NCBI GenBank assembly: GCA_033762915.1
Contig: JANRLD010000094.1
Location: forward strand, 16,469-48,468
Direction of reading: 5' to 3'
Source: Meiothermus sp.
GTDB lineage: Bacteria; Deinococcota; Deinococci; Deinococcales; Thermaceae
DNA length: 32,000 bases
The position numbers were made by a program, and so were the translations under genes. The notes under the pieces were generated by a model. That model did no database searches and was not told where the DNA came from. It was given only the letters and a program-made list of their open reading frames with translations. Shown piece after piece: positions 3,507-26,568 of the stretch. Positions within the stretch are counted from its first letter, which is position 1; the number at the start of each line of letters is the position of its first letter.

Positions 3507-4016
3507 TTGGCCAAGGTGCAGCTGTTCAGCCGCTCGAGTCTGGTCAAGGCCAACCTCGAGGCCCTCGCGCAGAATTGGCGGTTTGAGCGCGGGGTGACGC
3601 TGGTCCTGGACTACCCCGCCGGGTTCGCCCTCGAGGTACTGCCGATGCTCGAGCCGCCGGTGGTGATCGTCACCCCCAGCCTCTCGCCCTACTACTGGCA
3701 AAACCTGATCGACCACGGACCATCGGCCCTCCTGACCGAGCCCGCCGCCATCGAGGCCGCGCTGACCAAGGCCGCCACCGGCCAGCCCGGCAGCTTCCCC
3801 GCCGTTCCCGCCGACCAGCGCCTGACCCCCCGCGAGCGCGAGGTGCTGGGCCTGCTGGTGAAGGGGATGAGCGACAAGGAAATTGCGCGGGAGCTGGGAC
3901 TCGAGCCCAAGACCGTCTCGCACTGGGTGCTCAACATCCGGGGCAAGATGGGGGCGGAGAACCGGGCGCAAGCCATTCTGATCTACTGGGGATTGCTGCC
4001 GGGTCTGACGGTCTGA
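3507..4016 (+). CDS. LuxR/FixJ-type HTH transcriptional regulator with degenerate receiver-like N-terminal domain
   Basis: The C-terminal LTPREREVLGLLVKGMSDKEIARELGLEPKTVSHWVLNIRGKMGAENRAQA is a canonical LuxR-type HTH. The N-terminal roughly 100 aa has receiver-like periodicity but lacks the acidic DD pair. Start is TTG. Confidence 0.8.
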   Translation: MAKVQLFSRSSLVKANLEALAQNWRFERGVTLVLDYPAGFALEVLPMLEPPVVIVTPSLSPYYWQNLIDHGPSALLTEPAAIEAALTKAATGQPGSFPAVPADQRLTPREREVLGLLVKGMSDKEIARELGLEPKTVSHWVLNIRGKMGAENRAQAILIYWGLLPGLTV

Positions 4017-7949: not shown

Positions 7950-8003
7950 AGGGTACTAGGGTAACGGCAAAATCGGCGGTTTTGCCGTTACCCTAATTAC
8001 CGT

Positions 8004-9476: not shown

Positions 9477-9551
9477 GCCAAGGGTGTAGGGGTGCTCGAG
9501 AACTCGGTCAACTTCCAGCCCCCCGCCCCCGCCCACCCCTTATGATGGTTT

Positions 9552-10442
9552 GTGATGCTGGAGGTTCGCGTTCCCGCCACGCTGGCGAATCTGGGTTCGG
9601 GCTTCGACGCGCTCGGGGTGGCGCTGGGGCTGTACCTCGAGGTCTCTGCCAAGCCCGCCGCCACAGACGAGTTTCACTACTCGGGGCAGGGCAGCCTGCC
9701 CGACTCGCCGGACAACCTGATTCACCAGGGCTTCCGGGCGGCCTTCGCTGACCTGGGAGAGCCCGCTCCCGCGGTCGCCGTCACCGCCCGCAACCCCATC
9801 CCGCTGGCGCGAGGCATGGGCAGCAGCTCGGCGGCGCTGGTGGCAGGCGCGGCGCTGGCCGACGCAATGAGCGGGGGTAAGCTGGGGCGCGACGGGGTGT
9901 TTCGGGTGACGGCGCGGCTGGAGGGCCACCCCGACAACGTGGCCCCAGCGGTCTACGGGGGCTTCGTGGCGGCCCTGGCCGACCCACCCCTGGCGCTGCC
10001 GCTCCCCGCGCCTGAGGGCCTGCGGTTCGTGCTGGGGGTTCCGGCCTATGAGGTGCCCACCCCGCTGGCCCGGGCCGCCCTGCCCCAAACCGTCCCCTAC
10101 GGCGACGCGGTGTTTAACCTCAGCCGGGCCGCGCTGTGGCCCGCCGCGCTGTACTCCGGACGCTTCGAGGCGCTGCGCGAGGCGGCCCGCGACCGGCTGC
10201 ACCAGGGCTACCGTGCCCACCTAATGCCCGGCCTCGAGGGGGCACTCGAGGCCGCCTACGCGGCAGGGGCGCTGGCGGCCTTCGTGGGCGGCGCGGGGCC
10301 GACCCTGGCAACCCTGGTGCACCCGCAGCGGGCAGACAGTGTGGGCACGGCCCTACAAAGCTACATTGGTGGGGGCAGAGTATTGACGTTGGACCTGGGA
10401 GCGGGAGTCTCATGGAAGGAAGCCTCAGCACCATCGCACTGA
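9552..10442 (+). CDS. thrB: Homoserine kinase
   Basis: GHMP kinase motifs: VRVPATLANLGSGFD, PLARGMGSSSAALVAG, EGHPDNVAPAVYGG. Confidence 0.9.
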   Translation: MMLEVRVPATLANLGSGFDALGVALGLYLEVSAKPAATDEFHYSGQGSLPDSPDNLIHQGFRAAFADLGEPAPAVAVTARNPIPLARGMGSSSAALVAGAALADAMSGGKLGRDGVFRVTARLEGHPDNVAPAVYGGFVAALADPPLALPLPAPEGLRFVLGVPAYEVPTPLARAALPQTVPYGDAVFNLSRAALWPAALYSGRFEALREAARDRLHQGYRAHLMPGLEGALEAAYAAGALAAFVGGAGPTLATLVHPQRADSVGTALQSYIGGGRVLTLDLGAGVSWKEASAPSH

Positions 10443-11228: not shown

Positions 11229-11407
11229 GTGCGAACTATCGCCCGCCAGCTCCCGCAGGGAATTGCGCCTCGGGTAGCCGCTCTGCGGCTATGGCGCACG
11301 CCACTCCGCCCTGGGTAGCCGCTCTGCGGCTATGGCGCACGCCACTCCGCCCCAGCACGTATTTGCCGCTTCCGCCGATTCCGCACTTCTACCCTGGCGC
11401 AACTTAC
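11229..11407. repeat. Intergenic repeat element, copy A
   Basis: Shares long near-identical blocks with 18866-19053 and 24249-24320, including CGCCCGCCAGCTCCCGCAGGGAATTGCGCCTCGGGTAGCCGC and TTTGCCGCTTCCGC..ACCCTGGCGCAACTTAC. All three copies are in the same orientation. Confidence 0.75.
11272..11353. repeat. 41-bp tandem duplication inside repeat copy A (GGGTAGCCGCTCTGCGGCTATGGCGCACGCCACTCCGCCCT x2)
   Basis: The two adjacent units are identical apart from the last base. Each unit contains a TAGCCGC-tct-GCGGCTA hairpin. Confidence 0.85.
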
Positions 11408-11475: not shown

Positions 11476-12560
11476 CTATGTCAATACTTCGCACAGAGCG
11501 CGGTAGACCGAACGACAGACTTGGCGTTTGGTGGCCCGCGTGGCCTGTCGGGCGGCCATCCCGGCCTGTCGCTTGCCGTCGCGGTAGGTTCGGGTGTCGG
11601 GGTCACGCTTGAGGCGATTCCAGGTGATGAGTTCAATGGTCCGGTTGAGGCGTCGGTTGCCTCCTGGATTAACCTTGACTCGCTGATTGTTGGCCGAGGA
11701 GTGATCCTTGGGGGCTTGGGGGCCACGCCGGCATAACTGGCGAAGGCGGCTTCGCTGCGGAAGCGCCGCATGTCCTGCGCCTCCCCGATCAACACAGCGG
11801 CACTCACCAGGCCGATCCCCGTAGCGTTCAGGAGGGCTCGGTAGGGTTCTAGCAGTTTCTCCAGCACCTTTTCAAGTTCCCGAATCTGCTGCTGTAAGGT
11901 GGTGTACACCGCCTCCAGGCTGGTCCTGACCTGCGGCAAGGCGTAGGGCTGGGCCGCCAGCGCCTCGATCTGCTGTCCGATGGCGACCCGTTGAGCCACT
12001 AAGCTCTCCCGACTACGCTCCAGGCTCTGGATTTGTAGGGCAGAGGTCGGTAGCCGCAGGGGGAAACGCTTCTCCCACACACTGGCTTCCAGCAGAACCG
12101 TCGCGGCCTGTCGAGCATCTTCAAAGTCGTTCTTGACCTTCTGACGACGCTTGCGCATATGGGCAATCTCAGTGGCTGGGATGTCGTAGACCTGCTGCCC
12201 CTGAGACAACAGGTACCAACTCAGGCCCAGCCCGTAGCCTCTGGCGTTCTCCACTGCAAAGACCAACCCTGACCCCGACTCTGACTCCGACTCCAAATCT
12301 GACTCCGACCCCGACTCCGACTCCGACTCCAACTCTGACCCTGTTCCCAATCCGCAGCCGTGTTCCTTCAATCCCGACAGCAGTTGAGCATAGCCCGCCT
12401 GGGTATTGGGTAACTCGCCCTGAGTTTTGACCCCTCCGCCGAGTCCGCCGAGTCCTGTCCCGAGCAGCACGTAGCTAAAGCTCCGCTTGTGGGCATCCAC
12501 CCCTACCACCCATTTGACCTCAGACCCTGCACTCAGCGGTAGTTGAGCTAGACTATTCAT
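11476..12560 (-). pseudogene. IS110-family transposase (DEDD N-terminal domain plus transposase_20 C-terminal domain), frameshifted
   Basis: N-terminus VGVDAHKRSF. C-terminal domain TGIGLVSAAVLIGEAQDMRRFRSEAAFASYAGVAP. After AGVAPK the track frame turns into nonsense. Shifting frame gives DHSSANNQRVKVNPGGNRRLNRTIELITWNRLKRDPDTRTYRDGKRQAGMAARQATRATKRQVCRSVYRALCEVLT and a stop at 11476-11478, the expected IS110 C-terminus. The cause is an 8-bp tandem duplication at 11707-11722. Confidence 0.85.
12271..12340 (-). repeat. Hexanucleotide (GACTCC-like) microsatellite inside the transposase gene, encoding SELESESESGSESDLESESESGSG
   Basis: The plus strand reads gaccccgactctgactccgactccaaatctgactccgaccccgactccgactccgactccaactctgaccct. 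It forms a low-complexity insert between the DEDD-domain strand LLSGLKEHG and LVFAVENARG. Confidence 0.85.
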
Positions 12561-12746
12561 GGCTCCCCCTGTACCCGACTGCCCAGAACATTTCTGTGGC
12601 CAGCGCTTTGGCGCACGCTTCTATCGAGCTACTGGGGGAGTCGAGTCTGTTTGGCTAGGGCGGGAAGCAACTCCCACTCGGCAACTTAGGCTAAACGCGA
12701 TCGAGCTATCCTGCCCTCCTTCTACTCTAATCCCACAGAAACGCGA

Positions 12747-12863
12747 TCAGTTGCCGGTAACCGCCCAGGTGACGGCGGCCTGGAACAGCCAGCCCCCCAC
12801 TAGGCGGTGTCAACCAGGGTGGAGCTGGTGTCCTGGAACATGAAGGCCACGCGGAGGGCGCGG
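12747..12863 (-). pseudogene. Relic of the 3' end of a subtilase paralog (C-terminal domain type of the 20540-22408 gene)
   Basis: DNA homology to 20540-20650 (gatcagttgccggtaaccgcccaggtgacggcggcc vs gatcagttcccgctgaccgcccaggtgacagcggcc). The translation ARALRVAFMFQDTSSTLVDTA(stop) then, after a frameshift, GWLFQAAVTWAVTGN(stop) matches APARRVAFFMRDNQASKLTPVGWNLFEAAVTWAVSGN(stop). Confidence 0.75.
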
Positions 12864-12874
12864 GCAAAACAGTA

Positions 12875-12896
12875 CCCCTCGAGCAAGCTCGAGGGG
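12875..12896 (-). terminator. Terminator hairpin CCCCTCGAG-caag-CTCGAGGGG after subtilase 1
   Basis: 9-bp GC-rich stem with a 4-nt loop, 19 nt beyond the stop at 12915. The same sequence recurs after subtilases 2 and 3. Confidence 0.6.
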
Positions 12897-12914
12897 CACC
12901 TGCCCTACCGGGTT

Positions 12915-14687
12915 TTACGGGTTGCGCACCAGGCGCATATCGTCTACCAGAACCGTGCTGGTGCCGTGGCCGCGCCACAGCACCACGTTGAGATGGGTGG
13001 TGGTGGGGCCGGTGGTGATGGTGAGCGAGCGGCTGGTATAGGCGGTGGTGTCGCTCTTAACCGAGGTGGTGGTCCGCTCGAGCAACATCGAGGCGGCATC
13101 GGACTGGTCGAGGCTGAGGGAGGCGGCGTCGGCAAGGTTGGCGAAGCGAAACCAGGCCGTGACGGTGTAGCTGGTGTTGGGGCTGACCGGAATCCGGTGG
13201 CTCCAGGCCCCGCCCATCCCGACCGAGAGGGCTCCAGAGCCCGAGCGCTGCCCGCTGGTAGCGCGGGAGGCACTCTCGAAGCCCCACGACGCAGTGGTCT
13301 CGAGGCCGCCGTTGGGGAGCAGGTTGGTGGCCGAGGCTACCGCAGCGGGCTCGGCAAAGCCGGGCAGCGATCGCAGCAGGTTGGCGCTGTCCACCATCCC
13401 CAGGCCCAAGCTCAGCCACGCGCCGCCTCGAGCTTGGCTGGTGCGGTTCCACATGTCGTTGGTGAAGGCCGAGTCCACGGCCAGCTGCCACAAGTTGGCC
13501 CGGGCGGTGACGTTGGTGGTCTCGCCGAAGGCCAGGGCCAGGGCGCCCGAGACCAGTGGGGCGGCGAAGGAGGTGCCGGTGAACTGGGCGGTACGGCTGC
13601 CGGGGAATGCGCTCACCACCCCCTCCCCCACCCCGCCCAGCACGAAGTTGTTGCCGTAGGCCGAGAACAGCGACAGCTCGGAGCGGCGGTTGAAGCTGCC
13701 CACGCTGAAAAGGAAGGGGTGCACCTGCTCCCACCAGGCGTAGCGGGCGGGGTAGGTGAGGGCGTTCTCCTGGCCGTTGTTGCCCGCGCTGGCCACCACG
13801 TAGACCCCCCTGGCCTTGGCCGCCGAGAGGGCGGTCAGGAGGGCGTCGCTGGGGTCGGTGGCGCCGAGCGAGACGTTGATAACCCGGGCCCCGCTGTTGA
13901 GGGCGTGGTTGACCCCGGCGATCACGCGGTCCAGGGTGCCTACGCCGTTGGGGCCGAGGACCCGGATGGGCAGGATGGTGGCCCTGGGCGCCACCTGGAG
14001 GATCAGCCCGGCCACCCCGGTACCGTGCCCGAAGGCGTTGGGAGTGCCCGAGTTGACCTCCTGGGGATTGTTGTCGCCGTCGACAAAGTCGCGCCACTCG
14101 GCGCTGGGGGCTAGGCGGCCCGCGAACATGGGGTGGGCGGTGTCGAGGCCAGTGTCGACAACCGCGACCTTGACCCCCGCCCCGAAGTTCCTGGCCAGGG
14201 CGTGGGCCTGCCGCAGTTGCATCATGGTCCAGACGGCGTTGTTCTCGGCCGGGGGCTGGGGAGGAGTGGTGCCGCCACTCCAAGCGTTCCAGCCACCGCT
14301 CCAGGCGTTCCACCCACTGCTCCAGGCGTTCCAGCCGCCACTCCAGGCGTTCCAGCCGCCGCTCCACCCGTTCCAACCCTGGGCGGTGGCCATCGGCACG
14401 TTGAGCGCGGAGTTGGCCTCGAGGGTGGTGTTTTGCATGGAGATGCCGCGGACTTGCAGCTGGGCCACCGCCTCGCCGGTCATCCTGAGGATGGCCTGGC
14501 CGTCTAGCCAGGCGATCACCTCGCCGCCATAGCGCTGGGTTACTGCTTCTTGGGTGTCGGCTGGCTCGAGCCGGACCGTCAGCAGGTAGTCGCTGCCGCC
14601 CGGCGAGCTGGCCGTGGGGGCGCTCCCGCAGGCCGCCAGGAGCGCGACCAGCACGACCGCCACGCCATGTTTAAGTTTGAAAGTCAT
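12915..14687 (-). CDS. Lipoprotein S8 subtilase 1: I9-like propeptide, 5x GWN(A/G)WS(G/S) repeats, catalytic domain, CBM4_9-like C-terminal domain
   Basis: Lipobox LLAAC|GS. Triad motifs VAVVDTGLD, HGTGVAG, GTSFAAPLVSG. AGGAGG RBS 8 nt upstream of the ATG. The C-terminal roughly 140 aa (LPNGGLETTASWGFES...SYTVTAWFRF...VLVDDMRLV) looks like a CBM4_9/galactose-binding-like module. Confidence 0.9.
   Translation of the reverse strand: MTFKLKHGVAVVLVALLAACGSAPTASSPGGSDYLLTVRLEPADTQEAVTQRYGGEVIAWLDGQAILRMTGEAVAQLQVRGISMQNTTLEANSALNVPMATAQGWNGWSGGWNAWSGGWNAWSSGWNAWSGGWNAWSGGTTPPQPPAENNAVWTMMQLRQAHALARNFGAGVKVAVVDTGLDTAHPMFAGRLAPSAEWRDFVDGDNNPQEVNSGTPNAFGHGTGVAGLILQVAPRATILPIRVLGPNGVGTLDRVIAGVNHALNSGARVINVSLGATDPSDALLTALSAAKARGVYVVASAGNNGQENALTYPARYAWWEQVHPFLFSVGSFNRRSELSLFSAYGNNFVLGGVGEGVVSAFPGSRTAQFTGTSFAAPLVSGALALAFGETTNVTARANLWQLAVDSAFTNDMWNRTSQARGGAWLSLGLGMVDSANLLRSLPGFAEPAAVASATNLLPNGGLETTASWGFESASRATSGQRSGSGALSVGMGGAWSHRIPVSPNTSYTVTAWFRFANLADAASLSLDQSDAASMLLERTTTSVKSDTTAYTSRSLTITTGPTTTHLNVVLWRGHGTSTVLVDDMRLVRNP
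14274..14378 (-). repeat. 5 tandem 21-nt repeats encoding GWNGWSG-GWNAWSG-GWNAWSS-GWNAWSG-GWNAWSG
   Basis: Direct reading of the translation (aa 104-138 of subtilase 1). The periodic ccaggcgttccagcc units are visible in the DNA. Confidence 0.95.
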
Positions 14688-14756
14688 AGATCTGCCTCCT
14701 CAAGACCTTTTGCCTGGTGAGCTTACACAGGCCGACCAACATGGGTTGAGCTACTT

Positions 14757-14788
14757 AACCGTTACAAACAAGGCGTGCGTTACAGCGG
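14757..14788 (-). promoter_or_regulatory. Conserved bipartite upstream motif of subtilase 1 (gene sense CCGCTGTAACGC-N11-GTAACGGTT)
   Basis: The same two boxes with an identical 11-nt spacer length occur upstream of all five paralogs, 58-74 nt from each ATG. An AAC ... CGG spacing of about 17 nt resembles ECF-sigma promoters. Confidence 0.6.
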
Positions 14789-14905
14789 GATTCAACCCAT
14801 GGCCTGCGAACACCTCGGTGGAATCCACTCCCCGCCGTGTTTTCGGGGTGCGGTGTCGCGGCCAAACAATCTGCCAACCGCTGTAGGGATAGGGGCGCAG
14901 GAAAA

Positions 14906-14927
14906 CCCCTCGAGCAAGCTCGAGGGG
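14906..14927 (-). terminator. Terminator hairpin CCCCTCGAG-caag-CTCGAGGGG after subtilase 2
   Basis: Identical hairpin to 12875-12896, 14 nt beyond the stop at 14941. Confidence 0.6.
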
Positions 14928-14940
14928 CCTCCTCTGGGGC

Positions 14941-16731
14941 TCAGTTGCGCACCAGGCGGACATCATCGATCAGGATAGCCCCTGACCCACCGGCCCGCTG
15001 GAAGTAGAGGGTGAGCGAGCTGGTGCTGGGGCCGGTGGTGAGGGTGACCGAGCGGCTGGAGTAGCTGGTGGTGAAGGGGTTGACGGTGGTCTCGGTCTTG
15101 CCCAGGAGGGTGTTGCTCGAGCTGCGCTCCTCGAGGCCGAAGAGGGCCGCGTCGCCGGCGGCGGTGGAGGGGAAGCGCAGCCAGGCCGTGACGGTATAAC
15201 TGGTGTTGGGGCTGACCGCGACCGTGGTGCTGGCGATCCGCCCCGCCCCCAGCGACCCCGCCGCCTTGCCCGAGCGCTGGCCCGAGGTGGTGCGGGCGGC
15301 CCCGCCGCTGTAGGTCCAGCCGCCGCTGGTGCTCTCGAAGCCGGGGTTGGCCGAGGCCAGGTTGGTGGCGGTGGAGGTGGGCTCGACAAAGGTGGGCAGC
15401 GAGCGCAGCAGGTTGGCCGCGTCCACCATGCCGTTGCCCGAGCCGAAGTAGGTGGTACCGGCGGGCAGACGGCCGGAGGCGATGCTGCGGTTGAGGCTGT
15501 CGTTGGTGAAGAGGGTGCGGAGCAGGCGGTTCATGAGGTCGGCCCGAACCGTTGCGTCGGTGGTCTCGCTTAGGGTTAGCGCCAGTACCCCCGAAACCAG
15601 CGGGGTGGCGAAGGAGGTGCCAGTGTACTGGGCGATCTGGCCGCCGGGGTAGGCGCTGACCACCCCCTCGCCCACCGCCCCGACCATAAAGGTCGAGCCG
15701 TAGGCCGAGAACGGCGAGAGCTGCGAGCCGCGGCTGAAGCTGCCCACCCCCATCACATAGGGGTAAGCGCCTTCGGTGAGGCTGAAGATGGCCGGGAAGA
15801 GGATGCCCTCCTGCTGGCCATTGTTGCCCACCGCCGAGGGCACGTAAACCCCGTTCTGAACCGCGGCGCCCAGCGCGGCCACCAGGGCGTCGCTCCAGCC
15901 GCTGGCCCCCAGCGAGAGGTTGATGACCTTGGCCCCCCTGGCGATGGCGTGGTTGATGGCGGCGATCACATTGTCCAGGCTGCCCGAGCCGTTGGGGCTG
16001 AGCACCCGGATGGGCAGGATGGTGGCCTTGGGGGCTACTTGCAAGATGATCCCCGCCACACCCGTACCGTGCCCAAAGGCACTGGGGGTGGTGCCGGCGT
16101 TAACCTCCTGGGGGGTGGTGTCCCCGTCAACGTAGTCCTTCCACTCGGTGCTGGGGGCCAGCCGCCCAACGAACATCGGGTGGTTGAGGTCGATCCCGGT
16201 GTCGATCACCGCAACCTTGATCCCCGAACCGTAGTTCTTGGCCAGGGCGTGGGCCTGGCGCAGTTGCATCATGGTCCAAATGGTGTTGTTCTCGGCAGGC
16301 AGCGCAGGCACTGTGCCGCCGCTGCTCCAGGCATTCCAGCCGCTGCTCCAGGCATTCCACCCACTGCTCCAGGCGTTCCAACCGCTGCTCCAGGCATTCC
16401 AGCCGCTGGCCCCCGTGCCCAGCGCGCTGGCCATGGGGGTGCTGAGGACGGAGTTGGTCTCGAGGGTGGTGTTCTGCATCGAGACCCCACGGGCCTGCAT
16501 CTGCGCCACCGCCTCCCCCGACATCTTGAGCACGGCCCTCTCATCGGTCCACAGCAGCAGTTCGCCGCCGTAGCGCTGGGTCACTGCTTCTTGGGTGTCG
16601 CCGGCCTCGAGCCGGACGGTGAGCAGGTGGCCGCCGGCGCCCGGCGAGCCGGCGGTGGGCGCGCTCCCGCAGGCCGCCAGGAGCGCGACGAGGGAAAGGG
16701 CCAGGGCTTGTTTGAGACGTTGAAAGGGCAT
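14941..16731 (-). CDS. Lipoprotein S8 subtilase 2: I9-like propeptide, 4x GWNAWSS, catalytic domain, CBM4_9-like C-terminal domain
   Basis: Start chosen at MPFQRLKQALALSLVALLAAC|GS (ATG 16731, AGGAGG 6 nt upstream). The track start at 16800 would run into the promoter motif. Triad motifs VAVIDTGID, HGTGVAG, GTSFATPLVSG. Confidence 0.9.
   Translation of the reverse strand: MPFQRLKQALALSLVALLAACGSAPTAGSPGAGGHLLTVRLEAGDTQEAVTQRYGGELLLWTDERAVLKMSGEAVAQMQARGVSMQNTTLETNSVLSTPMASALGTGASGWNAWSSGWNAWSSGWNAWSSGWNAWSSGGTVPALPAENNTIWTMMQLRQAHALAKNYGSGIKVAVIDTGIDLNHPMFVGRLAPSTEWKDYVDGDTTPQEVNAGTTPSAFGHGTGVAGIILQVAPKATILPIRVLSPNGSGSLDNVIAAINHAIARGAKVINLSLGASGWSDALVAALGAAVQNGVYVPSAVGNNGQQEGILFPAIFSLTEGAYPYVMGVGSFSRGSQLSPFSAYGSTFMVGAVGEGVVSAYPGGQIAQYTGTSFATPLVSGVLALTLSETTDATVRADLMNRLLRTLFTNDSLNRSIASGRLPAGTTYFGSGNGMVDAANLLRSLPTFVEPTSTATNLASANPGFESTSGGWTYSGGAARTTSGQRSGKAAGSLGAGRIASTTVAVSPNTSYTVTAWLRFPSTAAGDAALFGLEERSSSNTLLGKTETTVNPFTTSYSSRSVTLTTGPSTSSLTLYFQRAGGSGAILIDDVRLVRN
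16321..16404 (-). repeat. 4 tandem 21-nt repeats encoding GWNAWSS x4
   Basis: aa 110-137 of subtilase 2. Confidence 0.95.
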
Positions 16732-16800
16732 TGAAAGCCTCCTTGATAATTGCGCTATGGCCCAGGATAAAAGGCGGGTGTGAATGTGTTTGAGACACAC

Positions 16801-16828
16801 AACCGTTACCCCGCCACTTGGCGTTATG
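16801..16828 (-). promoter_or_regulatory. Conserved bipartite upstream motif of subtilase 2 (CCATAACGC-N11-GTAACGGTT)
   Basis: Same boxes and spacing as the other paralogs, 70 nt upstream of the ATG at 16731. Confidence 0.55.
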
Positions 16829-16839
16829 GATCAAAGAAA

Positions 16840-16865
16840 GGCCCCTCGAGCAAGCTCGAGGGGCC
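16840..16865 (-). terminator. Terminator hairpin GGCCCCTCGAG-caag-CTCGAGGGGCC after subtilase 3
   Basis: 11-bp stem with a 4-nt loop, 15 nt beyond the stop at 16880. Confidence 0.6.
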
Positions 16866-16879
16866 CGGTGTAAATCCAC

Positions 16880-18598
16880 TCAGTTCATCAACTGCAGCCG
16901 CCAGCGCTGGTTGTTGGCCCCGTTGCAGCCCCACTGCACTGCGCTGGCATCGACGGCCAGGGAGCCCCCGCTGATGCCGACGCATTTGTTGGAGTGGCGG
17001 GCCACCAGCTCGTACACACTGCCCACCGGGCGCAGCGTCCACTGCTGGTTGTTAGCGCCGACCCAGCCCCACTGCTGCACCCTACCGCCATCGGCGGTAG
17101 TGGAGGCGGATACCTCCAACACCTTAGCGCTGTTGTTGTTGACCAAGCTGTAGAAGCCGCCCGCAAAGTCCAGCCGCCAGCGCTGGCTGCTGTCGGAGTT
17201 GCAGGTTTCCTGCCGCACCACAGCGCCGTCGGATCTGGACGAGCTGGCCACGTCGAGGCAGAGGTTGCTGTTGTTGTTGACGATGCGGTACTGCGGCTGG
17301 GTCCAGCCGGGCAGCACCCGGATCAGCCGCTCCACGTCCAGCAGCCGTGCGCCCGTGATGCCGGGGTTGGGGGTGTTGGTGTTCATGCTGCCCCACAAGG
17401 CCTCGGCCACGGTATTGAAAGTAAGGCTGGGGGCTTCAGACATGGCCAGCGCAGCCGCACCACTGAACATCGGGGCGGCGAAGGAGGTGCCGGTCACGCG
17501 GGCGGTCTGGCTGCCGGGGTAGGCGGCAGCGATGGACTCCCCGGGGGCAATGCCGTAAATGTCGGTGGCACCGTTGTTGGTGGGGTCGAGCAGGGCGGTG
17601 AAGCTCGAGATCACGTTGTCCGAGCGCACGCTGCCGATGCCCACGGTTTTCATGTAGGTCTGGTCGTACCAGCTCAGATTGGCGGGGAACAGGGCGTTGG
17701 TGTTGTTGCCGGTGTTGCCGGTAGAGGCGTAGATGTACACGCCCCGGCTGTTGGCCCAGGCGGCGGTATCGAAGAGCGCATCCGACCAGGAGGTGCTGCC
17801 CAGCGAGACGTTGATGACCCTGGCCCCCATGTTCACCGCATGGGTGATGCCCGTGAGCACCACATCGAGGCTCCCCGCGCCGTCCTGGTTCAGCACCCGA
17901 ATGGGGAGGATGGTGGCCTTGGGAGCGACCTGCAGGATGATGCTGGCCGCAGCCGTACCGTGCCCGAAGCCCCTGTTGGAGGAAGTCCCCACCTCCTGGG
18001 GGTTGTTGTCGTTGCTCACGAAGTCGCGCCACTCGCTGCTGGGGGCCAGCCGACCGCTGAACATAGGGTGCGCGGTATCGATGCCGGTGTCCAGCACCGC
18101 CACCTTGACCCCCGCTCCGAAGCGGCGGCTGATGGCGTGGGCCTCGCGCAGCCGGATCTGGTTCCAGGCGGTGTTATTCTCCGACGGCGGCGCACCCCCC
18201 ACCCCACTGCTCCAGGCGTTCCAGCCCCCGCTCCACGCGTTCCAGCCGCTGCTCCAGGCGTTCCAGCCGCCCGACCATGCGTTCCAGCCCGCCGCCGTGA
18301 CCGGGGCCGCCACTGGGGTGTTGGCCGCCAGGGTGGTGTTCTGCATCGAGATGCCCCGGGCCTGCAGCTGCGCCACGGCTTCGCTGCTCAACTTGAGGAT
18401 GGCCTTATCGTCCAACCAGGCCACCATCTCGCCGCCGTACCTCTGAACGATGGACTCCTGGGTGTCACCTTCGCTGAGTTTGATGGTGAGCAGTTGGTCG
18501 CTGCCGCCTGGCGAGGTCGCCTGAAGCGGTGCACCGCAGGCCGCCAGCAGGGCGACCAGCGATACCGCCAGGGTCAGTTTGAGCGTTTGAGCGATCAT
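16880..18598 (-). CDS. Lipoprotein S8 subtilase 3: I9-like propeptide, 4x GWNAWS(G/S), catalytic domain, ricin-type beta-trefoil (CBM13-like) C-terminus
   Basis: Lipobox LLAAC|GA. Triad motifs VAVLDTGID, HGTAAAS, GTSFAAPMFSG. The C-terminal roughly 135 aa has three QxW-type repeats (SSQRWRL, NNQQWTL, NNQRWRL), characteristic of ricin B lectin domains. Confidence 0.9.
   Translation of the reverse strand: MIAQTLKLTLAVSLVALLAACGAPLQATSPGGSDQLLTIKLSEGDTQESIVQRYGGEMVAWLDDKAILKLSSEAVAQLQARGISMQNTTLAANTPVAAPVTAAGWNAWSGGWNAWSSGWNAWSGGWNAWSSGVGGAPPSENNTAWNQIRLREAHAISRRFGAGVKVAVLDTGIDTAHPMFSGRLAPSSEWRDFVSNDNNPQEVGTSSNRGFGHGTAAASIILQVAPKATILPIRVLNQDGAGSLDVVLTGITHAVNMGARVINVSLGSTSWSDALFDTAAWANSRGVYIYASTGNTGNNTNALFPANLSWYDQTYMKTVGIGSVRSDNVISSFTALLDPTNNGATDIYGIAPGESIAAAYPGSQTARVTGTSFAAPMFSGAAALAMSEAPSLTFNTVAEALWGSMNTNTPNPGITGARLLDVERLIRVLPGWTQPQYRIVNNNSNLCLDVASSSRSDGAVVRQETCNSDSSQRWRLDFAGGFYSLVNNNSAKVLEVSASTTADGGRVQQWGWVGANNQQWTLRPVGSVYELVARHSNKCVGISGGSLAVDASAVQWGCNGANNQRWRLQLMN
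18206..18289 (-). repeat. 4 tandem 21-nt repeats encoding GWNAWSG-GWNAWSS-GWNAWSG-GWNAWSS
   Basis: aa 104-131 of subtilase 3. Confidence 0.95.
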
Positions 18599-18671
18599 GA
18601 TCAGGGGCCTCCTAAGACTTTGCTTCGTCTGTTCAAATTACGTGACAGGAACAGCATGGACTCACCAACAC

Positions 18672-18703
18672 AACCGTTACTCGAGTCCCCCGCGTTACAG
18701 CAG
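18672..18703 (-). promoter_or_regulatory. Conserved bipartite upstream motif of subtilase 3 (CTGCTGTAACGC-N11-GTAACGGTT)
   Basis: Same boxes and spacing as the other paralogs, 74 nt upstream of the ATG at 18598. Confidence 0.6.
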
Positions 18704-18865
18704 TTTGCGGGCTGATTACCGCCGCACCACACAGCGAAAACGCGCTGTGAAGAACAGATTTCAGACCCCCAGGTTTTTGCAGAGTTGGGAGCGAAATCCG
18801 CTAAGGCCACGATGTGACCCCAAGCCCGGGCAGGGCCGCACCCGACCGGGCGCAGGAGACTTATG

Positions 18866-19053
18866 AGTCTCCATAGTTGCAAAGCGACACACCAGCTCCT
18901 TCAAGAAATTGCGCCTCGGGTAGCCGCTCCGCGGCTATGGCGCACGCCACTCCGCCCTGGGTAGCCGCCCTGCGGCTATGGCGTACGCCACTATGTCCCG
19001 GCACGTGTTTGCCGCTTCCGCTGATACTGCGCTTCTACCCTGGCGCAACTTAC
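18866..19053. repeat. Intergenic repeat element, copy B (also with two 41-bp units, 18918-18958 and 18959-18999)
   Basis: Collinear with copy A from AATTGCGCCTCGGGTAGCCGC to ACCCTGGCGCAACTTAC. Its left end, TCTCCATAGTTG, matches copy C. Confidence 0.75.
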
Positions 19054-20324
19054 CAGGGCGCAGCGTTGAGGAAGTTGGCGACCTGTAGTCGGCTGGAGCC
19101 GAGCTTGCCGAAGAACGGCAGGTTCTTGAGGGTGATGGAGATGCCGTTGTTGGTCAGGGTGCCCTTCAAGCTGGATAGGTTCCCCCGGCCCTGCCCAAGG
19201 GCCAGCGCCAGCGAGCCCGAGACCAGCGGGGCCGCCATGGATGTCCCACTCCAGCTGGCAACCCGGCTGCCGGGCGCGGTGGTGGCGATGCGCTCGCCGG
19301 GCGCGGTCATGTCCAGGCTGGAGCCGTAGTTGGCAAAGCCGGACTTGACGTCGCTGGCGTCCACGCTGCTCACGCTGACCAGGTAGCTCGATGTCCCGAC
19401 TAAGTCGAGGGTCTTGGACTGGCGGGCCGGGTAGTCGAGGCCGTCGGCGTTGGCGTTGCCGGCCGCCGCTACTACGTAAATCTTCCTCGAGGTGGCGCTG
19501 TTCAAGACCGCGGTGAGGGCCGCAGAGGGGCTGTCAGCGCCCAGGGAGAGGTTGATGACCTGGGCGCCTGCGCCGATGGCGGTGTTGATGGCCGCGATGA
19601 CGTTAGACAGGCTGCCCGAGCCGTCGGGGCCCAGCACCCGGTAGGCCATAATCATGGCGCTGGGGGCCACCTGGGCCACGATCCCCGCCACCGCCGTCCC
19701 ATGCCCGAAGCCGCGGTCGCCCATCATCCCAACCTCCTGGGGAATGCCGTCGTTGTCCACGAAGTCGTAGCGGTCGATCAGACGCGAGGCCAGGGCCGGG
19801 TGATTGAGGTCGACGCCGCTGTCGATCACTGCCACCTTAACGTTTTGGCCCAGGTTGGAGGCCAGGGAGTGGGCCTGGCTAAGGCCGATCTGGGTCCAGA
19901 GGGCGTTGTTCTCAGTGCTGAAATTGGTGATGGAGCCGGTGCCGCTGCTCCAGGCATTCCACCCGCTGCTCCAGGCGTTCCAGCCGCTGCTCCAGGCGTT
20001 CCACCCCACCGCATTAACGGTGGACGGGGTTCTCACGCGGGTGTCGCCCTCGAGCGTAGTTCCCTGCATCGAGACCCCCCGGGACTGCAGCTGGGCCACC
20101 GCCTCGCCCGTCATCCTGAGGATGGCTTGGCCGTCCAGCCAGGCGATCACCTCGCCGCCATAGCGCTGGGCCACAGTCTCCTGGGTGTCGGCCGGCTCGA
20201 GCTGGACCGTGAGCAAGTAGCCGCTGCCGCCCGGCGAGGTTGCCTGGGTTGGAGCGCTGCCGCAGGCCGCCAGCACGGCGACCAGCGAGCCCACCAGGGC
20301 GAGTTTGAGCGTTTGAGCGATCAT
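19050..20324 (-). CDS. Lipoprotein S8 subtilase 4: I9-like propeptide, 3x GWNAWSS, catalytic domain, no C-terminal module
   Basis: Start at MIAQTLKL (ATG 20324, AGGAGG upstream), parallel to subtilase 3. Lipobox VLAAC|GS. Triad motifs VAVIDSGVD, HGTAVAG, GTSMAAPLVSG. It ends at ...QVANFLNAAPW, where paralogs continue into a C-terminal domain. Confidence 0.85.
   Translation of the reverse strand: MIAQTLKLALVGSLVAVLAACGSAPTQATSPGGSGYLLTVQLEPADTQETVAQRYGGEVIAWLDGQAILRMTGEAVAQLQSRGVSMQGTTLEGDTRVRTPSTVNAVGWNAWSSGWNAWSSGWNAWSSGTGSITNFSTENNALWTQIGLSQAHSLASNLGQNVKVAVIDSGVDLNHPALASRLIDRYDFVDNDGIPQEVGMMGDRGFGHGTAVAGIVAQVAPSAMIMAYRVLGPDGSGSLSNVIAAINTAIGAGAQVINLSLGADSPSAALTAVLNSATSRKIYVVAAAGNANADGLDYPARQSKTLDLVGTSSYLVSVSSVDASDVKSGFANYGSSLDMTAPGERIATTAPGSRVASWSGTSMAAPLVSGSLALALGQGRGNLSSLKGTLTNNGISITLKNLPFFGKLGSSRLQVANFLNAAPW
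19944..20006 (-). repeat. 3 tandem 21-nt repeats encoding GWNAWSS x3
   Basis: aa 107-127 of subtilase 4. Confidence 0.95.
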
Positions 20325-20397
20325 GAGCAAGGGCCTCCTTAGACTTTGCTTCGTCTGTTCAAATTACGTGGCACGAACGGCGTAGACTCATGAATAA

Positions 20398-20425
20398 AAC
20401 CGTTACTCGAGCCCCCCGCGTTAAT
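20398..20425 (-). promoter_or_regulatory. Conserved bipartite upstream motif of subtilase 4 (GCATTAACGC-N11-GTAACGGTT)
   Basis: Same boxes and spacing as the other paralogs, 74 nt upstream of the ATG at 20324. Confidence 0.55.
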
Positions 20426-20435
20426 GCTAAAACGT

Positions 20436-20463
20436 GGCCCCTCGAGTCCTGGCTCGAGGGGCC
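20436..20463 (-). terminator. Hairpin GGCCCCTCGAG-tcctgg-CTCGAGGGGCC downstream of subtilase 5
   Basis: 11-bp stem with a 6-nt loop, with the same stem sequence family as the other inter-paralog hairpins. Confidence 0.5.
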
Positions 20464-20492
20464 ATCTGGGAACACCAAAGCGGTTTCCATGA

Positions 20493-20527
20493 ATACTCGG
20501 CACGGCAACCAACGCCGTGCCGAGTAT
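20493..20527 (-). terminator. Hairpin ATACTCGGCACGGC-aaccaac-GCCGTGCCGAGTAT immediately after subtilase 5
   Basis: Perfect 14-bp stem with a 7-nt loop, 13 nt beyond the stop at 20540. Confidence 0.6.
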
Positions 20528-20539
20528 CGGGAAACGTGA

Positions 20540-22408
20540 TCAGTTCCCGCTGACCGCCCAGGTGACAGCGGCCTCGAAGAGGTTCCAGCCGACCGGGGTG
20601 AGCTTGCTGGCCTGGTTGTCACGCATGAAGAAGGCCACGCGCCGGGCCGGGGCGGTGCGCCCCACCATCTGGGCACCGGTGTCGTAGGCGAAGAGGTTGG
20701 CCTGGGCGGCGTTGTTGGCCATCCGCCCCACCACCACCGCGCCGCTGCCGGGTACGCCCCAGGAGAACCACTCCCCGGCGGTGTAGACGGCGGGGTTGGA
20801 GGGGGCGCTGAGGCCCGCCGCCAGCGGGTGGGTGCCGTTCACCAGGCTGACCTGAGTCAGCTTGTCGGTGGTGCCGGACTGGCCAGCGGCGGTCAGACCC
20901 ATTTCGTCGAAGACGTCGGCCCGCCACACCACCACCGGAACCGCGACCGCGGCGAACTTGGTGTTCACGTCGCCGCCGCTGGCAGTGGCCGAGATTAGCA
21001 CCAGGTCGCGCCCGGTCGCATCGGCTGTGCGGGCCTTTTTGTCTTCCCTGGGAGTCACCGAGTAGCCGAGGGACTGGAGGCGGCTGATCAGCAGGTCGTC
21101 GTTGGCGTTGGGGCTGGCTCCGCCGTGGACGAAGAGCGCGTTCTCGAGCTGGATGCCGGGCAGTCTCTGCGCGAAGCTGACCGTGTTAATCAGCCCAAAC
21201 CGGCTGTTGGTGGTGCCCGCCCCGAAGGTGGAGGTGGACAGCCAGGTCGAGAGGCTGGACCAGCTGAGGCTGGAGGTCTCGCTCATGGCCAAAGCCAGGA
21301 TGCCACTGACCAGCGGGGCCGCGAAGGAGGTGCCGCGCACGGTGGCGACCCGGCTTTCCGGATAGGCGGTGACGATGTTCTCGCCGGGGGCCATGAACTC
21401 CAGCGCCGTGCCCGAGTTAGAGAAGCTCGAGCGGTTGCCGTTGCCGTCCACGCTGCCCACACTAATCAGGCGGTCGGAGTTTGTGGCGTTGGCGGCCGGG
21501 AAGTCGAGGCTACCGCCCCTGTTTCCCGCCGCCGCTACAACGTAGACGCCCAGGCCGTTGACGTAGCTGATCTGGGTACGCAAGGCGGACACGTTCACGT
21601 CGGTGCCCAGCGAGAGGTTGATGATCTGCGCGCCCTGCTGGCGGGCCCAGTCGATGGCCGCCACCACGTTGTCTACGTTGCCCGAGCCGTCTGAACCCAG
21701 CACCCGGATGGGCAGGATGGTGGCGCGGGGGGCGACCTGCAGGATCAGCCCCGCCACCGCCGTACCGTGCCCATAACCCTTGTCGCCCGGTACATCTTGG
21801 GGGTTGCTGTCGCCGTCTACGTAGTCCTTCCACTGGCTGCTGGGAGCCAGCCGGCCGGTAAACATCGGGTGGGCGAGATCCAGGCCGGTGTCGATCACCG
21901 CCACCTTGATCCCACTACCATAGTCGCGGGCTAGCGCGTGGGCTTGGGGCAGCTTGATCTGCAAGAAGGCGGGGCGGTTGCTGGGGGGTATCACCGGGAT
22001 GCTGCTGCTGCCGCTGGCCCAGGCGTTCCAGCCGCTGCCCCAGGCATTCCAGCCGCTGCCCCAGGCGTTCCACCCGCTGCCCCAAGCGTTCCAGCCGCTC
22101 ATGGTGGCCGGGGTGCCCACGTCGGCGTTGGCCTCGAGGGTGGTGTTCTGCATCGAGACCCCCCGGGCCTGCAGCTGGGCCACCGCCTCCTCGCCCATCC
22201 TGAGGATGGCTTGGTCGTCCAGCCACGCGATCACCTCGCCGCCGTAGCGCTGGGCCACGGTCTCCCGGGTGTCGGCCGGCTCGAGCCGGACTGTGAGCAG
22301 ATAGCCGCTGCCCCCCGGCGAGGTTGCCTGGGGCGGAGTGCCCCCACAGGCTGCCACAACCGCAATGAGCGAAAGCGCAAGAGCCTGTTTGATGTACCGA
22401 AGTCTCAT
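20540..22408 (-). CDS. Lipoprotein S8 subtilase 5: I9-like propeptide, 4x GWNAW(G/A)S, catalytic domain, uncharacterised roughly 200-aa C-terminal domain
   Basis: Lipobox VVAAC|GG. Triad motifs VAVIDTGLD, HGTAVAG, GTSFAAPLVSG. I cannot assign the C-terminal domain (NALFVHGGASPNANDDLLISRLQSLGY ... VGWNLFEAAVTWAVSGN) to a known family. It has an alternating alpha/beta-like pattern. Confidence 0.9.
   Translation of the reverse strand: MRLRYIKQALALSLIAVVAACGGTPPQATSPGGSGYLLTVRLEPADTRETVAQRYGGEVIAWLDDQAILRMGEEAVAQLQARGVSMQNTTLEANADVGTPATMSGWNAWGSGWNAWGSGWNAWGSGWNAWASGSSSIPVIPPSNRPAFLQIKLPQAHALARDYGSGIKVAVIDTGLDLAHPMFTGRLAPSSQWKDYVDGDSNPQDVPGDKGYGHGTAVAGLILQVAPRATILPIRVLGSDGSGNVDNVVAAIDWARQQGAQIINLSLGTDVNVSALRTQISYVNGLGVYVVAAAGNRGGSLDFPAANATNSDRLISVGSVDGNGNRSSFSNSGTALEFMAPGENIVTAYPESRVATVRGTSFAAPLVSGILALAMSETSSLSWSSLSTWLSTSTFGAGTTNSRFGLINTVSFAQRLPGIQLENALFVHGGASPNANDDLLISRLQSLGYSVTPREDKKARTADATGRDLVLISATASGGDVNTKFAAVAVPVVVWRADVFDEMGLTAAGQSGTTDKLTQVSLVNGTHPLAAGLSAPSNPAVYTAGEWFSWGVPGSGAVVVGRMANNAAQANLFAYDTGAQMVGRTAPARRVAFFMRDNQASKLTPVGWNLFEAAVTWAVSGN
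22013..22096 (-). repeat. 4 tandem 21-nt repeats encoding GWNAWGS x3 plus GWNAWAS
   Basis: aa 105-132 of subtilase 5. Confidence 0.95.
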
Positions 22409-25308: not shown

Positions 25309-26442
25309 TCACCAGCGCTCGAGGCCCGCCAGCCCGCCCAGCCGCTCCACCAGGCGGGTCTCGGCCTGGCCGCGCACAAACTCGAGGCGGGTGGCGTAGC
25401 GCTGGCACAGCTCGGGCAGCACCCGGCGCAGCTCCACATCCTGGATGCGCCCCGCGCCGTGGGCGATCGCGCCCTCGGTGCTACCGCCCACCCAGTCGTC
25501 TGGCGCGCGGTAGGCTTGGCCTTGCAGGTTCCAGGGGGCCACCACTAGCCGCAGGCGGCCCTGCTGGAGCAGCTCGAGGGTCTGATCCAAGCCCCCCACC
25601 CCACGCTCGATCAGCCCGTCCACCAGCTCGCTTTCGCGCTGGCGCTCGAGCGGCTCGAGGGCGGCCTCGACCCGCCTCAACACCTCGTCGGCGTGGCTGG
25701 AGGGGGTGGTGAGGGCGGGCAGCACCGTCCAGACCTTTTCGCGCAGGCGGCGCGGCAGCAAGGTCTCGAGGGTCTGCACCTCAGAGGGCTGGCCCATCAG
25801 CACCAGCCGCTGGATCTCGCGCCCGTGCAGCAGGCCCTCGAGCTGGCCCACCATCTGCTTATAAAAGCGGTAGGTCCAGGCCTCGAGGCGGCGCTCGAAG
25901 TGATCGGAGTCGGCCCCCCCGCCCAGGGTCATGCCCTGGCTGTAGCGCCGCCCCAGGCCGTCCTGGCGCAGCTGCCGCCACTCGCCGGGGTCGACGGGCC
26001 GGAAGGCGCCGGACAGTTCCTCGATTTCACCCAGGAACACCTCGAACATCCGCCACTTCTCGCTGTCCAGGAAGACCACCCCCACCCGCGGGTATTCTTC
26101 CAACAGGTAAAGCAGCGGGGTCAGGTAGGGCTCGCCCCAGCGGGCCTCCACGCCCTGCACCAGGGGCAGCTCGGCCTGCAAATCGTAGATCTCCATCAGC
26201 CCCTGGCCCGCAAAGACGATCCGGCTGCGGCCCTGCGGGGGGGCGGCCTCGAGGGCGCTCAGCAGGCTGCGGGCGAGGGGCCGGGGCACCTCGAGGGCCT
26301 TGAGCGCCTCCTTGACCCGCAGCGCATAGGCTTTGCCTTGGTTGGCGGGCCGGGCGGCGGTGTCCAGGTAGAGTGAGAAGACGGGAGAGGCCCGAGGGAC
26401 CACAAACTCGCGGACATGACGGGTCGCGGCTTGGGTGAGCAT
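25309..26442 (-). CDS. Bacterial eRF1/Pelota-like (baeRF/VLRF1-type) protein
   Basis: The three-domain layout and central segment LGRRYSQGMTLGGGADSDHFERRLEAWTYRFYKQMV resemble the GG(Q)-loop region plus following helix of aeRF1/Pelota-type proteins. The C-terminal domain has the usual ...LVDGLIERGVGGLDQTLELLQQGRL..L pattern. Start probably at MLTQAATR (26442). Confidence 0.55.
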   Translation of the reverse strand: MLTQAATRHVREFVVPRASPVFSLYLDTAARPANQGKAYALRVKEALKALEVPRPLARSLLSALEAAPPQGRSRIVFAGQGLMEIYDLQAELPLVQGVEARWGEPYLTPLLYLLEEYPRVGVVFLDSEKWRMFEVFLGEIEELSGAFRPVDPGEWRQLRQDGLGRRYSQGMTLGGGADSDHFERRLEAWTYRFYKQMVGQLEGLLHGREIQRLVLMGQPSEVQTLETLLPRRLREKVWTVLPALTTPSSHADEVLRRVEAALEPLERQRESELVDGLIERGVGGLDQTLELLQQGRLRLVVAPWNLQGQAYRAPDDWVGGSTEGAIAHGAGRIQDVELRRVLPELCQRYATRLEFVRGQAETRLVERLGGLAGLERW

Positions 26443-26568
26443 ACACACCTCCAACCCCCATTGAACCCGCGAGGCGTTACCCCGGCATTACCAAGTTGCG
26501 CGACTGTGCAACTGCCCAACGGCAGGGGCGGCCAGCCCAGAGGCGATGGATTGTCGTAGACTCTCGGC

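Follow-up and report, generated by a model that had tools for sequence, protein, structure and literature searches.

A periodic Trp-Gly array between the propeptide and catalytic domain of lipoprotein subtilases in Meiothermus and its relatives

Five subtilase genes with heptad arrays

The window analysed here is a 32,000-nt stretch of an 80,624-bp metagenome-assembled genome (MAG) contig from Meiothermus sp.; the G+C content of the window is 67.8%. It contains five genes for S8 peptidases (subtilases), S8-1 to S8-5, which lie head-to-tail on the minus strand at 12915-22408. Each carries, in frame, a tandem array of Trp-rich heptads with the consensus (GWNAW[SGA][SG])3-5, 21 nt per unit, and these arrays are the subject of this work. 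Subtilase maturation is a textbook case of propeptide-assisted folding and auto-inhibition, and the arrays lie between an I9-like pro-domain and the S8 domain, that is, at the propeptide/catalytic junction where a first-pass annotation of this DNA had placed them.

All five genes encode lipoprotein subtilases, with a lipobox (LLAAC or VVAAC) in every signal peptide. S8-1 (12915-14687) codes for 590 residues, with the catalytic domain at about 13467-14183 (PF00082, E-value 2.1e-38) and about 180 C-terminal residues that have no Pfam match. S8-2 (14941-16731) has 596 residues counted from its ATG, the open reading frame (ORF) reaching upstream to a GTG at 16800; its catalytic domain is at about 15529-16230, and its C-terminal module is identified by Pfam as CBM_4_9. 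S8-3 (16880-18598, 572 residues) has its catalytic domain at about 17384-18118 and a ricin-B lectin domain at the C-terminus, while S8-4 (19050-20324, 424 residues, catalytic domain at about 19182-19850) is without a C-terminal module. S8-5 (20540-22408) is the longest, at 622 residues, with the catalytic domain at about 21194-21919. Its C-terminal stretch of about 210 residues (20540-21190) has no Pfam match; the same domain recurs in two 813-residue relatives (P0140 and P0155), where it is followed by a further domain and where the arrays have seven to eight units.

The assignment to family S8 is secure. PF00082 matches all five proteins with E-values of 1e-36 to 1e-45 and 125-154 bits, against a gathering cut-off of 21.8, and the D(T/S)G, HGT, GN and GTS(F/M)A motifs are intact in all five, these columns being invariant in 180 relatives. 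The AlphaFold2 model of S8-4 has the subtilisin fold, with template modelling (TM) scores of 0.86-0.91 against thermitase and BPN' in Foldseek. The NCBIfam model for the type VII secretion mycosin (TIGR03921) scores 113-145 bits, below its cut-off of 278.75, because of generic S8 similarity only. The proteins P0011 (named as a Meiothermus sp. MAG S8 peptidase), P0013, P0019 and P0012, which come from the same contig, agree in length and Pfam domains with S8-1, S8-2, S8-3 and S8-5 respectively, those for S8-1, S8-3 and S8-5 being identical, and P0009, which is 100% identical to the S8-4 protein, is used for residue numbering.

The five arrays, which run on the same strand as their genes, differ in copy number and slightly in sequence. 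The S8-1 array (14274-14378) has five units (GWNGWSG, GWNAWSG, GWNAWSS, GWNAWSG, GWNAWSG), the S8-2 array (16321-16404) has four of GWNAWSS, the S8-3 array (18206-18289) has four (GWNAWSG, GWNAWSS, GWNAWSG, GWNAWSS), the S8-4 array (19944-20006) has three of GWNAWSS, and the S8-5 array (22013-22096) has four, three being GWNAWGS and one GWNAWAS. The coordinates and the range of three to five copies given in the first-pass annotation are thereby confirmed. Tandem Repeats Finder reports a period of 21 with 3.1-5.0 copies and scores of 114-154, and a DNA pattern for two units (WNAWxxGWNAW) has 14 matches in the window and none in 100 dinucleotide-preserving shuffles.

Conservation of the peptide

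GWNAW is kept in 19 of the 20 units, and the third codon positions that encode it vary freely (GGC/GGT/GGG, AAC/AAT, GCC/GCT/GCA/GCG, AGC/AGT/TCG). The mean nucleotide identity of units is 0.82-0.94 within an array and 0.80-0.93 between arrays. Counted at conserved residues, third-position identity comes to 0.67-0.84 for the repeats, as against 0.60-0.72 for the catalytic domains. Since the units differ synonymously and copy number is stable within clades (see below), the coding sequences indicate that the units are old and kept by purifying selection on the peptide, rather than being recent slippage copies. The suggestion that the peptide itself is under selection is therefore upheld, and the companion suggestion, that slippage makes the arrays variable, is not supported, the units not being identical in DNA. 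It was likewise correct that the paralogs are otherwise diverged: amino-acid identity among them is 46-64% in the catalytic domains, 58-73% in the pro-regions and 72-96% in the repeat region.

Recent gene conversion among the five paralogs was considered as an explanation for the similarity of their repeats. Third-position identity over the pro-region and repeats together (0.63-0.84) is near that of the catalytic domains and is not raised, and there is therefore no sign of it. In other organisms, the proteins closest to S8-3, S8-4 and S8-5 in their catalytic domains bear different repeat units. This would be expected if unit type followed the genome and not the catalytic lineage, but since GWNAW occurs widely in Thermaceae, ancestral retention accounts for the difference, and this idea too was rejected.

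Predicted structure of the pro-enzyme

The pro-regions of S8-1 (14379-14687, LLAAC lipobox), S8-2 (16405-16731), S8-3 (18290-18598), S8-4 (20007-20324) and S8-5 (22097-22408, VVAAC lipobox), all on the minus strand, each consist of a lipobox, an I9-like domain and a tail. These assignments come from the AlphaFold2 model for S8-4, from alignment and homology to that model for S8-1, and from alignment for S8-2, S8-3 and S8-5. AlphaFold2 was run on S8-4 with a 120-sequence alignment, giving a mean predicted local distance difference test score (pLDDT) of 87.7.

In the model, residues 33-106 of P0009 form a β-α-β-β-α-β domain, with block-mean pLDDT of 93-98 over residues 41-100. The best Foldseek match in the PDB to the whole model is unautoprocessed pro-subtilisin E (3WHI), over 411 columns with a target-normalised TM of 0.80, and the second is unautoprocessed pro-Tk-subtilisin. 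Normalised by the query, TM is 0.68 for 3WHI and 0.57 for mature enzymes alone, so the pro-domain superposes as well, and in the model the N-terminal domain is I9-like and docked canonically on the catalytic domain. Sequence methods do not detect this relationship: Pfam I9 (PF05922) has no match in the five proteins even at E-values up to 10, and hhalign against pro-BPN' aligned only the catalytic domain and not the propeptide. The identification of an I9 propeptide in the first-pass annotation thus stands as regards the predicted fold, although not as a Pfam match. By analogy with subtilisin, the I9-like domain would act as chaperone and inhibitor and would be removed by autoprocessing.

In S8-4 the first unit of the array comes straight after the last strand of the pro-domain (residues 103-106). 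In the canonical pro-subtilisin complex the I9 tail runs into the active-site cleft, and if the docking is as modelled, residues 103-106 would occupy the cleft here. Beyond them the model loses confidence: residues 107-123, in the array, have pLDDT below 50 and no secondary structure, with confidence returning from about residue 131, and the array is accordingly predicted to be intrinsically disordered. By alignment, the array ends at residue 128 and residue 1 of BPN' (A1) corresponds approximately to residue 136. The array end is therefore 7-8 residues upstream of the expected mature N-terminus, and the tail of the pro-domain, not the repeats, is the part that AlphaFold2 puts by the cleft; the arrays had been described as sitting precisely at the autoprocessing site, which is right only approximately. 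Structure prediction of the pro-enzyme had been put forward as a useful check on the locus, and its outcome is a docked I9-like domain followed by a predicted disordered array.

The order of parts in these proteins is thus lipobox Cys, I9-like propeptide, Trp-Gly array, a spacer of about 10 residues, S8 domain and an optional binding module.

Occurrence of the array in Deinococcota

A full-length search gave 2005 relatives, the best 120 of which were examined; the named sources among these best 120 were Meiothermus, Thermaceae and Deinococcus. A profile of the N-terminal region, run against 1.84 billion proteins, gave 212 cluster representatives at 50% identity. The arrays were surveyed in 236 relatives from Thermaceae and Deinococcales that have the catalytic Asp motif and a complete upstream region. 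A periodic array is present at the equivalent site in 214 of the 236, with 2-8 copies, mostly 3 or 4, and a period of seven residues in 162 proteins and eight in 52. Most of the 22 that fail the array pattern have degenerate arrays. The array was originally seen as a feature of these paralogs, and it is present in all of them, but it is not theirs alone: it marks a clade of Deinococcota S8 peptidases that comprises about 200 clusters at 50% identity, for the most part from thermophiles or radiation-resistant organisms, and that inserts a periodic Trp-Gly array at the propeptide junction. A lipobox pattern is found in 193 of 211 relatives, and at least 90% of 120 relatives keep its Cys.

The sequence of the unit depends on the lineage, with GWNAWSG, GFNSWAG, GYTAWSG, GWSTWGS, GRSNMWAG, GSIAAWAG and GKTSMWSG all being found. 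What is invariant in each unit across the clade is one Trp, corresponding to the second Trp of the window heptad, and a Gly three residues later. Between the two there is A, S or G and then G or S, and the Trp is mostly preceded by A, S or T. Outside the window the first Trp is replaced by F, Y, R, K or S; its position is aromatic in 95 of 131 seven-residue arrays, and eight-residue arrays have S, I or V there, with R or K one position further upstream. The description of the unit as having two Trp is therefore true of the window, but only the second Trp and the small-small-Gly that follows it are kept clade-wide. In 179 of 211 proteins the catalytic Asp follows 40-43 residues after the last Trp, which puts the array right against the ordered beginning of the catalytic domain. 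Units at the edges of the arrays are degenerate.

A genome scan with the DNA pattern for WNxWxxGWNxW, which is too loose and gives many out-of-frame matches, found 8 relevant loci (9 arrays) of 117 among the matches listed, all of them from Deinococcota, and in all 8 the array is directly upstream of an S8 domain. A 43-residue query consisting only of repeats, run against 5.8 billion proteins, gave 46 word-sharing candidates, none with E-value of 1e-3 or below; this null result is uninformative because the query is probably too short and compositionally biased.

Similar heptads elsewhere

The matches of the profile search that are confined to the repeat region are S8 peptidases, save for one spurious low-complexity protein, and they include relatives with very long N-terminal arrays. 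They also lead to a second S8 lineage, which bears the same heptad at its other end. These are AprX-like S8 peptidases from metagenomes (P0176, P0182 and P0211/P0268; loci L126, L130, L137, L192, L198 and L201-L203), which have an ordinary N-terminal pro-domain and 15-50 C-terminal heptads of the form GGYNSWS or the acidic DGFDSWA. The unit is near-identical to that of the window, at the opposite end of an enzyme from a different S8 subfamily. Cys-containing spacers break up some of the arrays, which close with a conserved tail, ...GDPAWAAAFAxLQNVP...

A metagenome scan for W-x-G-G-x-N-x-W-x-G-G-x-N-x-W returned 93 loci. About 14 are S8 genes of the Deinococcota type with N-terminal arrays and about 9-10 are AprX-like S8 genes or fragments with C-terminal arrays. 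The remainder are small Gly/Trp/Asn-rich ORFs (with GGGNPWG, GGGNHWG, Cys-flanked GGGWNTW, GGVNPWV or GGSNNWR) or are out of frame. The small ORFs include a set of Cys/Trp/Gly-rich proteins of about 100 residues from soil metagenomes (L133, L136, L152, L156, L158, L159, L162, L169, L180, L194, L195 and L209), without a protease domain, in which three GGGWNTW heptads are flanked by a repeated Cys motif, RCAPYRW...NGCPPGYTIQGGNCAPYR. Four Bacteroidota loci (L001, L010, L013 and L054) encode lipoprotein-like proteins in which GWGWNNWGW-type Trp/Asn/Gly tracts precede long tails rich in Ser and Arg, and in a Clostridia locus (L030) a small Cys-rich ORF has GGWNNWG heptads at its end; neither of these low-complexity families is related to S8.

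The first-pass annotation had raised the possibility that the repeat is a common low-complexity linker of unrelated proteins in this clade. The looser W/G/N arrays are a wider low-complexity theme in secreted proteins. As for the specific unit, G-aromatic-[ND]-[SA]-W-[SA]-G, the repeat-only profile and metagenome scans turned it up in no other fusion than with S8 peptidases.

Possible functions of the array

Our tentative preference, held at rather less than even confidence, is that the array serves as a disordered linker with several cleavage sites, which would be used in the stepwise maturation of a lipid-anchored zymogen. The units, read as x-x-x-W followed by small-small-Gly, would be iterated self-cleavage sites with Trp at P1; in the window heptads the first Trp would be P4, the Ala P2, and Ser-Gly P1'-P2'. 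The first step would be a cut in cis at the boundary between I9 tail and array. The array, now on the new N-terminus, would next be trimmed after its Trp residues, either by the enzyme itself or by co-expressed paralogs, which supposes that the catalytic domains can cleave GWNAWSGGWNAWSG peptides after Trp. The catalytic domain would thereby be freed from its lipid-anchored inhibitor, with short peptides ending in Trp as by-products.

Subtilases broadly prefer aromatic residues, and the unit logo resembles a favourable S4-S2' ligand; the junction in BPN' is AHAY|AQ. In support of stepwise maturation, we note that the array sits between the I9-like tail and the residue aligned to residue 1 of BPN', and that its logo, as a putative cleavage site, has Trp at P1, A/S/G at P1', G/S at P2', then Gly, with P2 mostly A/S/T and P4 often aromatic. 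The canonical docking of the pro-domain in the model, the predicted disorder of the array and the selection on its peptide also agree with this reading. Among enzymes, the repeat-only scans returned S8 peptidases only. The C-terminus, where the AprX-like heptads are found, is the other region of subtilases that is commonly auto-removed. A disordered aromatic segment is also unlikely to survive beside five co-encoded proteases of broad specificity. There is a possible parallel in the subtilase WF146, in which a linker peptide beyond the core propeptide is reportedly trimmed stepwise.

Several results weigh against stepwise maturation. Copy number is constant within clades defined by the catalytic domain, being 4 in 15 of 16 S8-5-like proteins (51-89% identical) and 3 in 16 of 19 proteins of another clade, and the order of units can be position-specific: F-F-W-W is common to several Meiothermus orthologues, and a further order is GSATWSS twice followed by GWNSWVS twice. 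Redundancy of cleavage sites alone predicts neither. In most of the clade, Thr takes the place of BPN' Gly166 on the S1 pocket floor, and to judge from this residue Trp may not be favoured there. When S8-4 was modelled by AlphaFold2 from the first repeat onwards, no unit docked in the cleft; the array had pLDDT of 28-40 and formed only a low-confidence hairpin. A test for co-variation between repeat type and the columns of the substrate cleft in 180 sequences, which is confounded by phylogeny, gave no enrichment of these columns, with 5-6 of them among the top 30 by mutual information (p 0.23-0.26). The 15-50 units of the AprX-like C-terminal arrays are hard to explain by cleavage sites alone, and looser W-x-G-G-x-N arrays occur in small proteins that are not proteases. 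Finally, we infer all of the cleavage steps, the fitting of Trp into the S1 pocket, and the purpose of the process (the timing or efficiency of activation and release). The tail that precedes the array was also examined as a possible degenerate unit: in the seven-residue clades its in-register position is T, S, A or Q, which is not hydrophobic, and it lends no support to the cleavage-site reading. If stepwise maturation over a multi-site activation linker is correct, lipid-anchored zymogens would have here a novel means of timing their release, which could also be put to use in the engineering of thermostable proteases.

A somewhat unlikely but close rival is that the array is not removed but stays as an aromatic anchor: after the cut at the I9 tail it would remain at the N-terminus as a sticker, replacing the lost lipid anchor and attaching the enzyme to the membrane interface, the envelope or a polymeric substrate. 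The lipobox is on the propeptide side in the 193 relatives that have it, and maturation would therefore otherwise free the enzyme. The calculated Wimley-White interfacial energy of the seven-residue arrays is strongly favourable, with a median of -9.3 kcal/mol per array, and the eight-residue units exchange the first aromatic for Arg or Lys, which is likewise interface-seeking. The clade-stable copy number that sits awkwardly with redundant cleavage sites is what a tuned affinity would be expected to give; the long AprX-like arrays occupy the usual site of an anchoring module in secreted proteases; and W/G/N-rich arrays are present in other secreted or lipoprotein-type proteins. Against retention, a disordered aromatic segment this close to five subtilases of broad specificity would be expected to be digested, unless something protects it. 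The eight-residue arrays are only weakly hydrophobic (median -3.8 kcal/mol) and the acidic DGFDSWA is about neutral, no known family of binding repeats in Pfam or NCBIfam matches the array, and in the scans made the heptad is on no enzymes other than S8 peptidases. A retained anchor, if real, would show how a protease that loses its lipid anchor on activation stays on the cell.

The first-pass annotation had also proposed a multi-core precursor, from which the protease would free tandem peptides of 7-8 residues as a signal, an antimicrobial or a nutrient cue. We found no positive evidence for this and regard it as improbable. It would account for the purifying selection on the unit, and for units that are near-identical within a protein and different between lineages, and the processing of repeat precursors by S8 proteases has precedent in yeast α-factor with Kex2 and in fungal Kex2-processed repeat proteins. 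In its most elaborate form, which we consider a long shot, the subtilases would be self-processing polyproteins releasing Trp-ended peptides (for example SGGWNAW) as a lineage-specific extracellular signal or effector, with the 15-50 copies in the AprX-like enzymes as a high-output version. Pairs of a histidine kinase and a response regulator adjoin homologues at two Thermaceae loci, L118 and L119, but these kinases have cytoplasmic GAF sensors and the two-component system is all that the loci share. Neither around the genes in the window nor at L118 or L119 is a tailoring enzyme, a transporter or a receptor conserved, and the flanking genes of the window include no radical-SAM enzyme, cyclase, ABC/C39 exporter or other peptide-tailoring function. 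Degenerate edge units and position-specific unit types are unlike the equal selection on copies that a peptide product would impose, clade-wide conservation is limited to W and G, and copy numbers are low. Were the peptides nevertheless the products, they would constitute a new class of protease-fused repeat precursor.

There is also little likelihood that the array is a passive slack loop, a spacer of the kind also proposed in the first-pass annotation, of which only the length matters, positioning the mature N-terminus before cleavage or tuning the off-rate of the inhibitor, with the sequence incidental. The predicted disorder of the array would suit such a spacer, as would the constancy of copy number within clades and the 20-60 residues that are added relative to pro-subtilisin, where the I9 tail joins the mature domain directly. 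A spacer would not, however, keep an invariant Trp and Gly in each unit across about 200 clusters at 50% identity, nor fix GWNAW while synonymous sites drift.

Least likely of all, and hardly credible, is a folded repeat missed by AlphaFold2, such as a Trp-ladder, a polyproline-II or β-solenoid stack, or a Trp-zipper coiled coil: the Trp residues at i, i+3 and i+7 do match the a/d positions of a coiled-coil heptad, the AprX-like C-terminal arrays are long and regular, and the only PDB sequence match to the array (E-value 2e-4) is 1T8Z, an Lpp variant with similar Trp spacing that we take to be an engineered Trp-zipper pentamer, but every unit contains Gly-Gly or Ser-Gly, AlphaFold2 predicts no helix, with pLDDT below 50, the first Trp varies within the clade and eight-residue periods break the a/d pattern. 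The Gly content, the AlphaFold2 results and the lack of conservation of the first Trp led us to reject the Trp-zipper coiled coil in particular.

Comparison with known systems

The closest comparison is with pro-subtilisin E and BPN' (3WHI, 1SPB), which the window proteins resemble in the predicted fold and docking of the N-terminal domain, in the catalytic machinery and in their Pfam S8 match. They differ in having no Pfam I9 match, in being lipoprotein precursors, and in the insertion of 30-60 residues of repeat plus spacer between the tail of the pro-domain and the mature N-terminus.

Extra sequence between the I9 core and the mature domain is also present in the WF146 protease and in pernisine, in which activation in trans by other proteases is possible; their linkers, unlike the arrays described here, are neither tandem repeats nor Trp-rich. 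Pernisine's N-terminus is shortened following maturation, and WF146 undergoes trans-activation (PMC10580911).

The AprX-like enzymes (P0176, P0182, P0268; L126, L201, L203) share the unit, in the form G-[FYW]-[ND]-S-W-[AS]-[GD], and its fusion to an S8 domain, and are different in that their arrays are C-terminal, of 15-50 units, sometimes acidic and with Cys spacers, and belong to another S8 subfamily. Precursors processed by Kex2, and enzyme-fused precursors of ribosomally synthesised and post-translationally modified peptides (RiPPs), also combine tandem short peptides with an S8 protease, although the likeness is one of analogy only: the window arrays have no dibasic or other spacer signals and no tailoring genes, their units adjoin one another directly and become degenerate towards the edges, with the protease in cis. 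Interfacial Trp anchors and sticker-and-spacer regions have in common with the arrays the regular aromatics in a Gly/Ser/Asn matrix and a favourable calculated interfacial energy; the array of the window proteins, by contrast, lies inside a protease pro-region, and binding is a candidate function only.

The arrays of the window proteins, and likewise the repeats of P0176, P0211 and P0223, are without a matching family in Pfam or NCBIfam, and the known wall- or choline-binding repeat families in Pfam have no match over the repeat region. No paper describing this array was found under the motif itself or in the literature on Deinococcus or Meiothermus subtilase propeptides and on repeat linkers, which is weak evidence given incomplete coverage of the literature; within the same incomplete coverage, no description of the AprX-like C-terminal arrays was found. 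While the enzyme class and the logic of the propeptide are well known, the Trp-Gly junction array and its C-terminal twin in the AprX-like enzymes thus appear to be undescribed. The Meiothermus keratinase MtaKer has an N-terminal pro-peptide of 100 residues, a mature enzyme of 278 residues, the triad Asp39/His72/Ser224 and disulfide bonds. From this description (pro-peptide, length, triad numbering and disulfides) we judge it to belong to a different S8 subfamily.

Genes around the cluster

Housekeeping genes flank the S8 genes in the window, together with an IS110-type transposase and others that are unrelated. The transposase ORF (11481-12560) covers half of the Transposase_20 model and holds a (GACTCC)n array at 12271-12339 that encodes Ser/Glu repeats; it adjoins a perfect 41-nt tandem duplication at 11272-11352, and ORF and duplication together, bordering the S8 cluster, are possibly a decayed insertion sequence. 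On the other side, a baeRF_family10 gene (bacterial eRF1-like, 25309-26454) is near an 893-residue ORF (27170-29851) that has no Pfam match. A lone GerE-type ORF is found at 3507-4016, about 9 kb from the S8 cluster. On the two Thermaceae contigs L118 and L119, a GAF-HisKA_3 histidine kinase and a NarL/GerE response regulator directly adjoin the S8 homologue, at 7484-9614 and 11916-13780 respectively.

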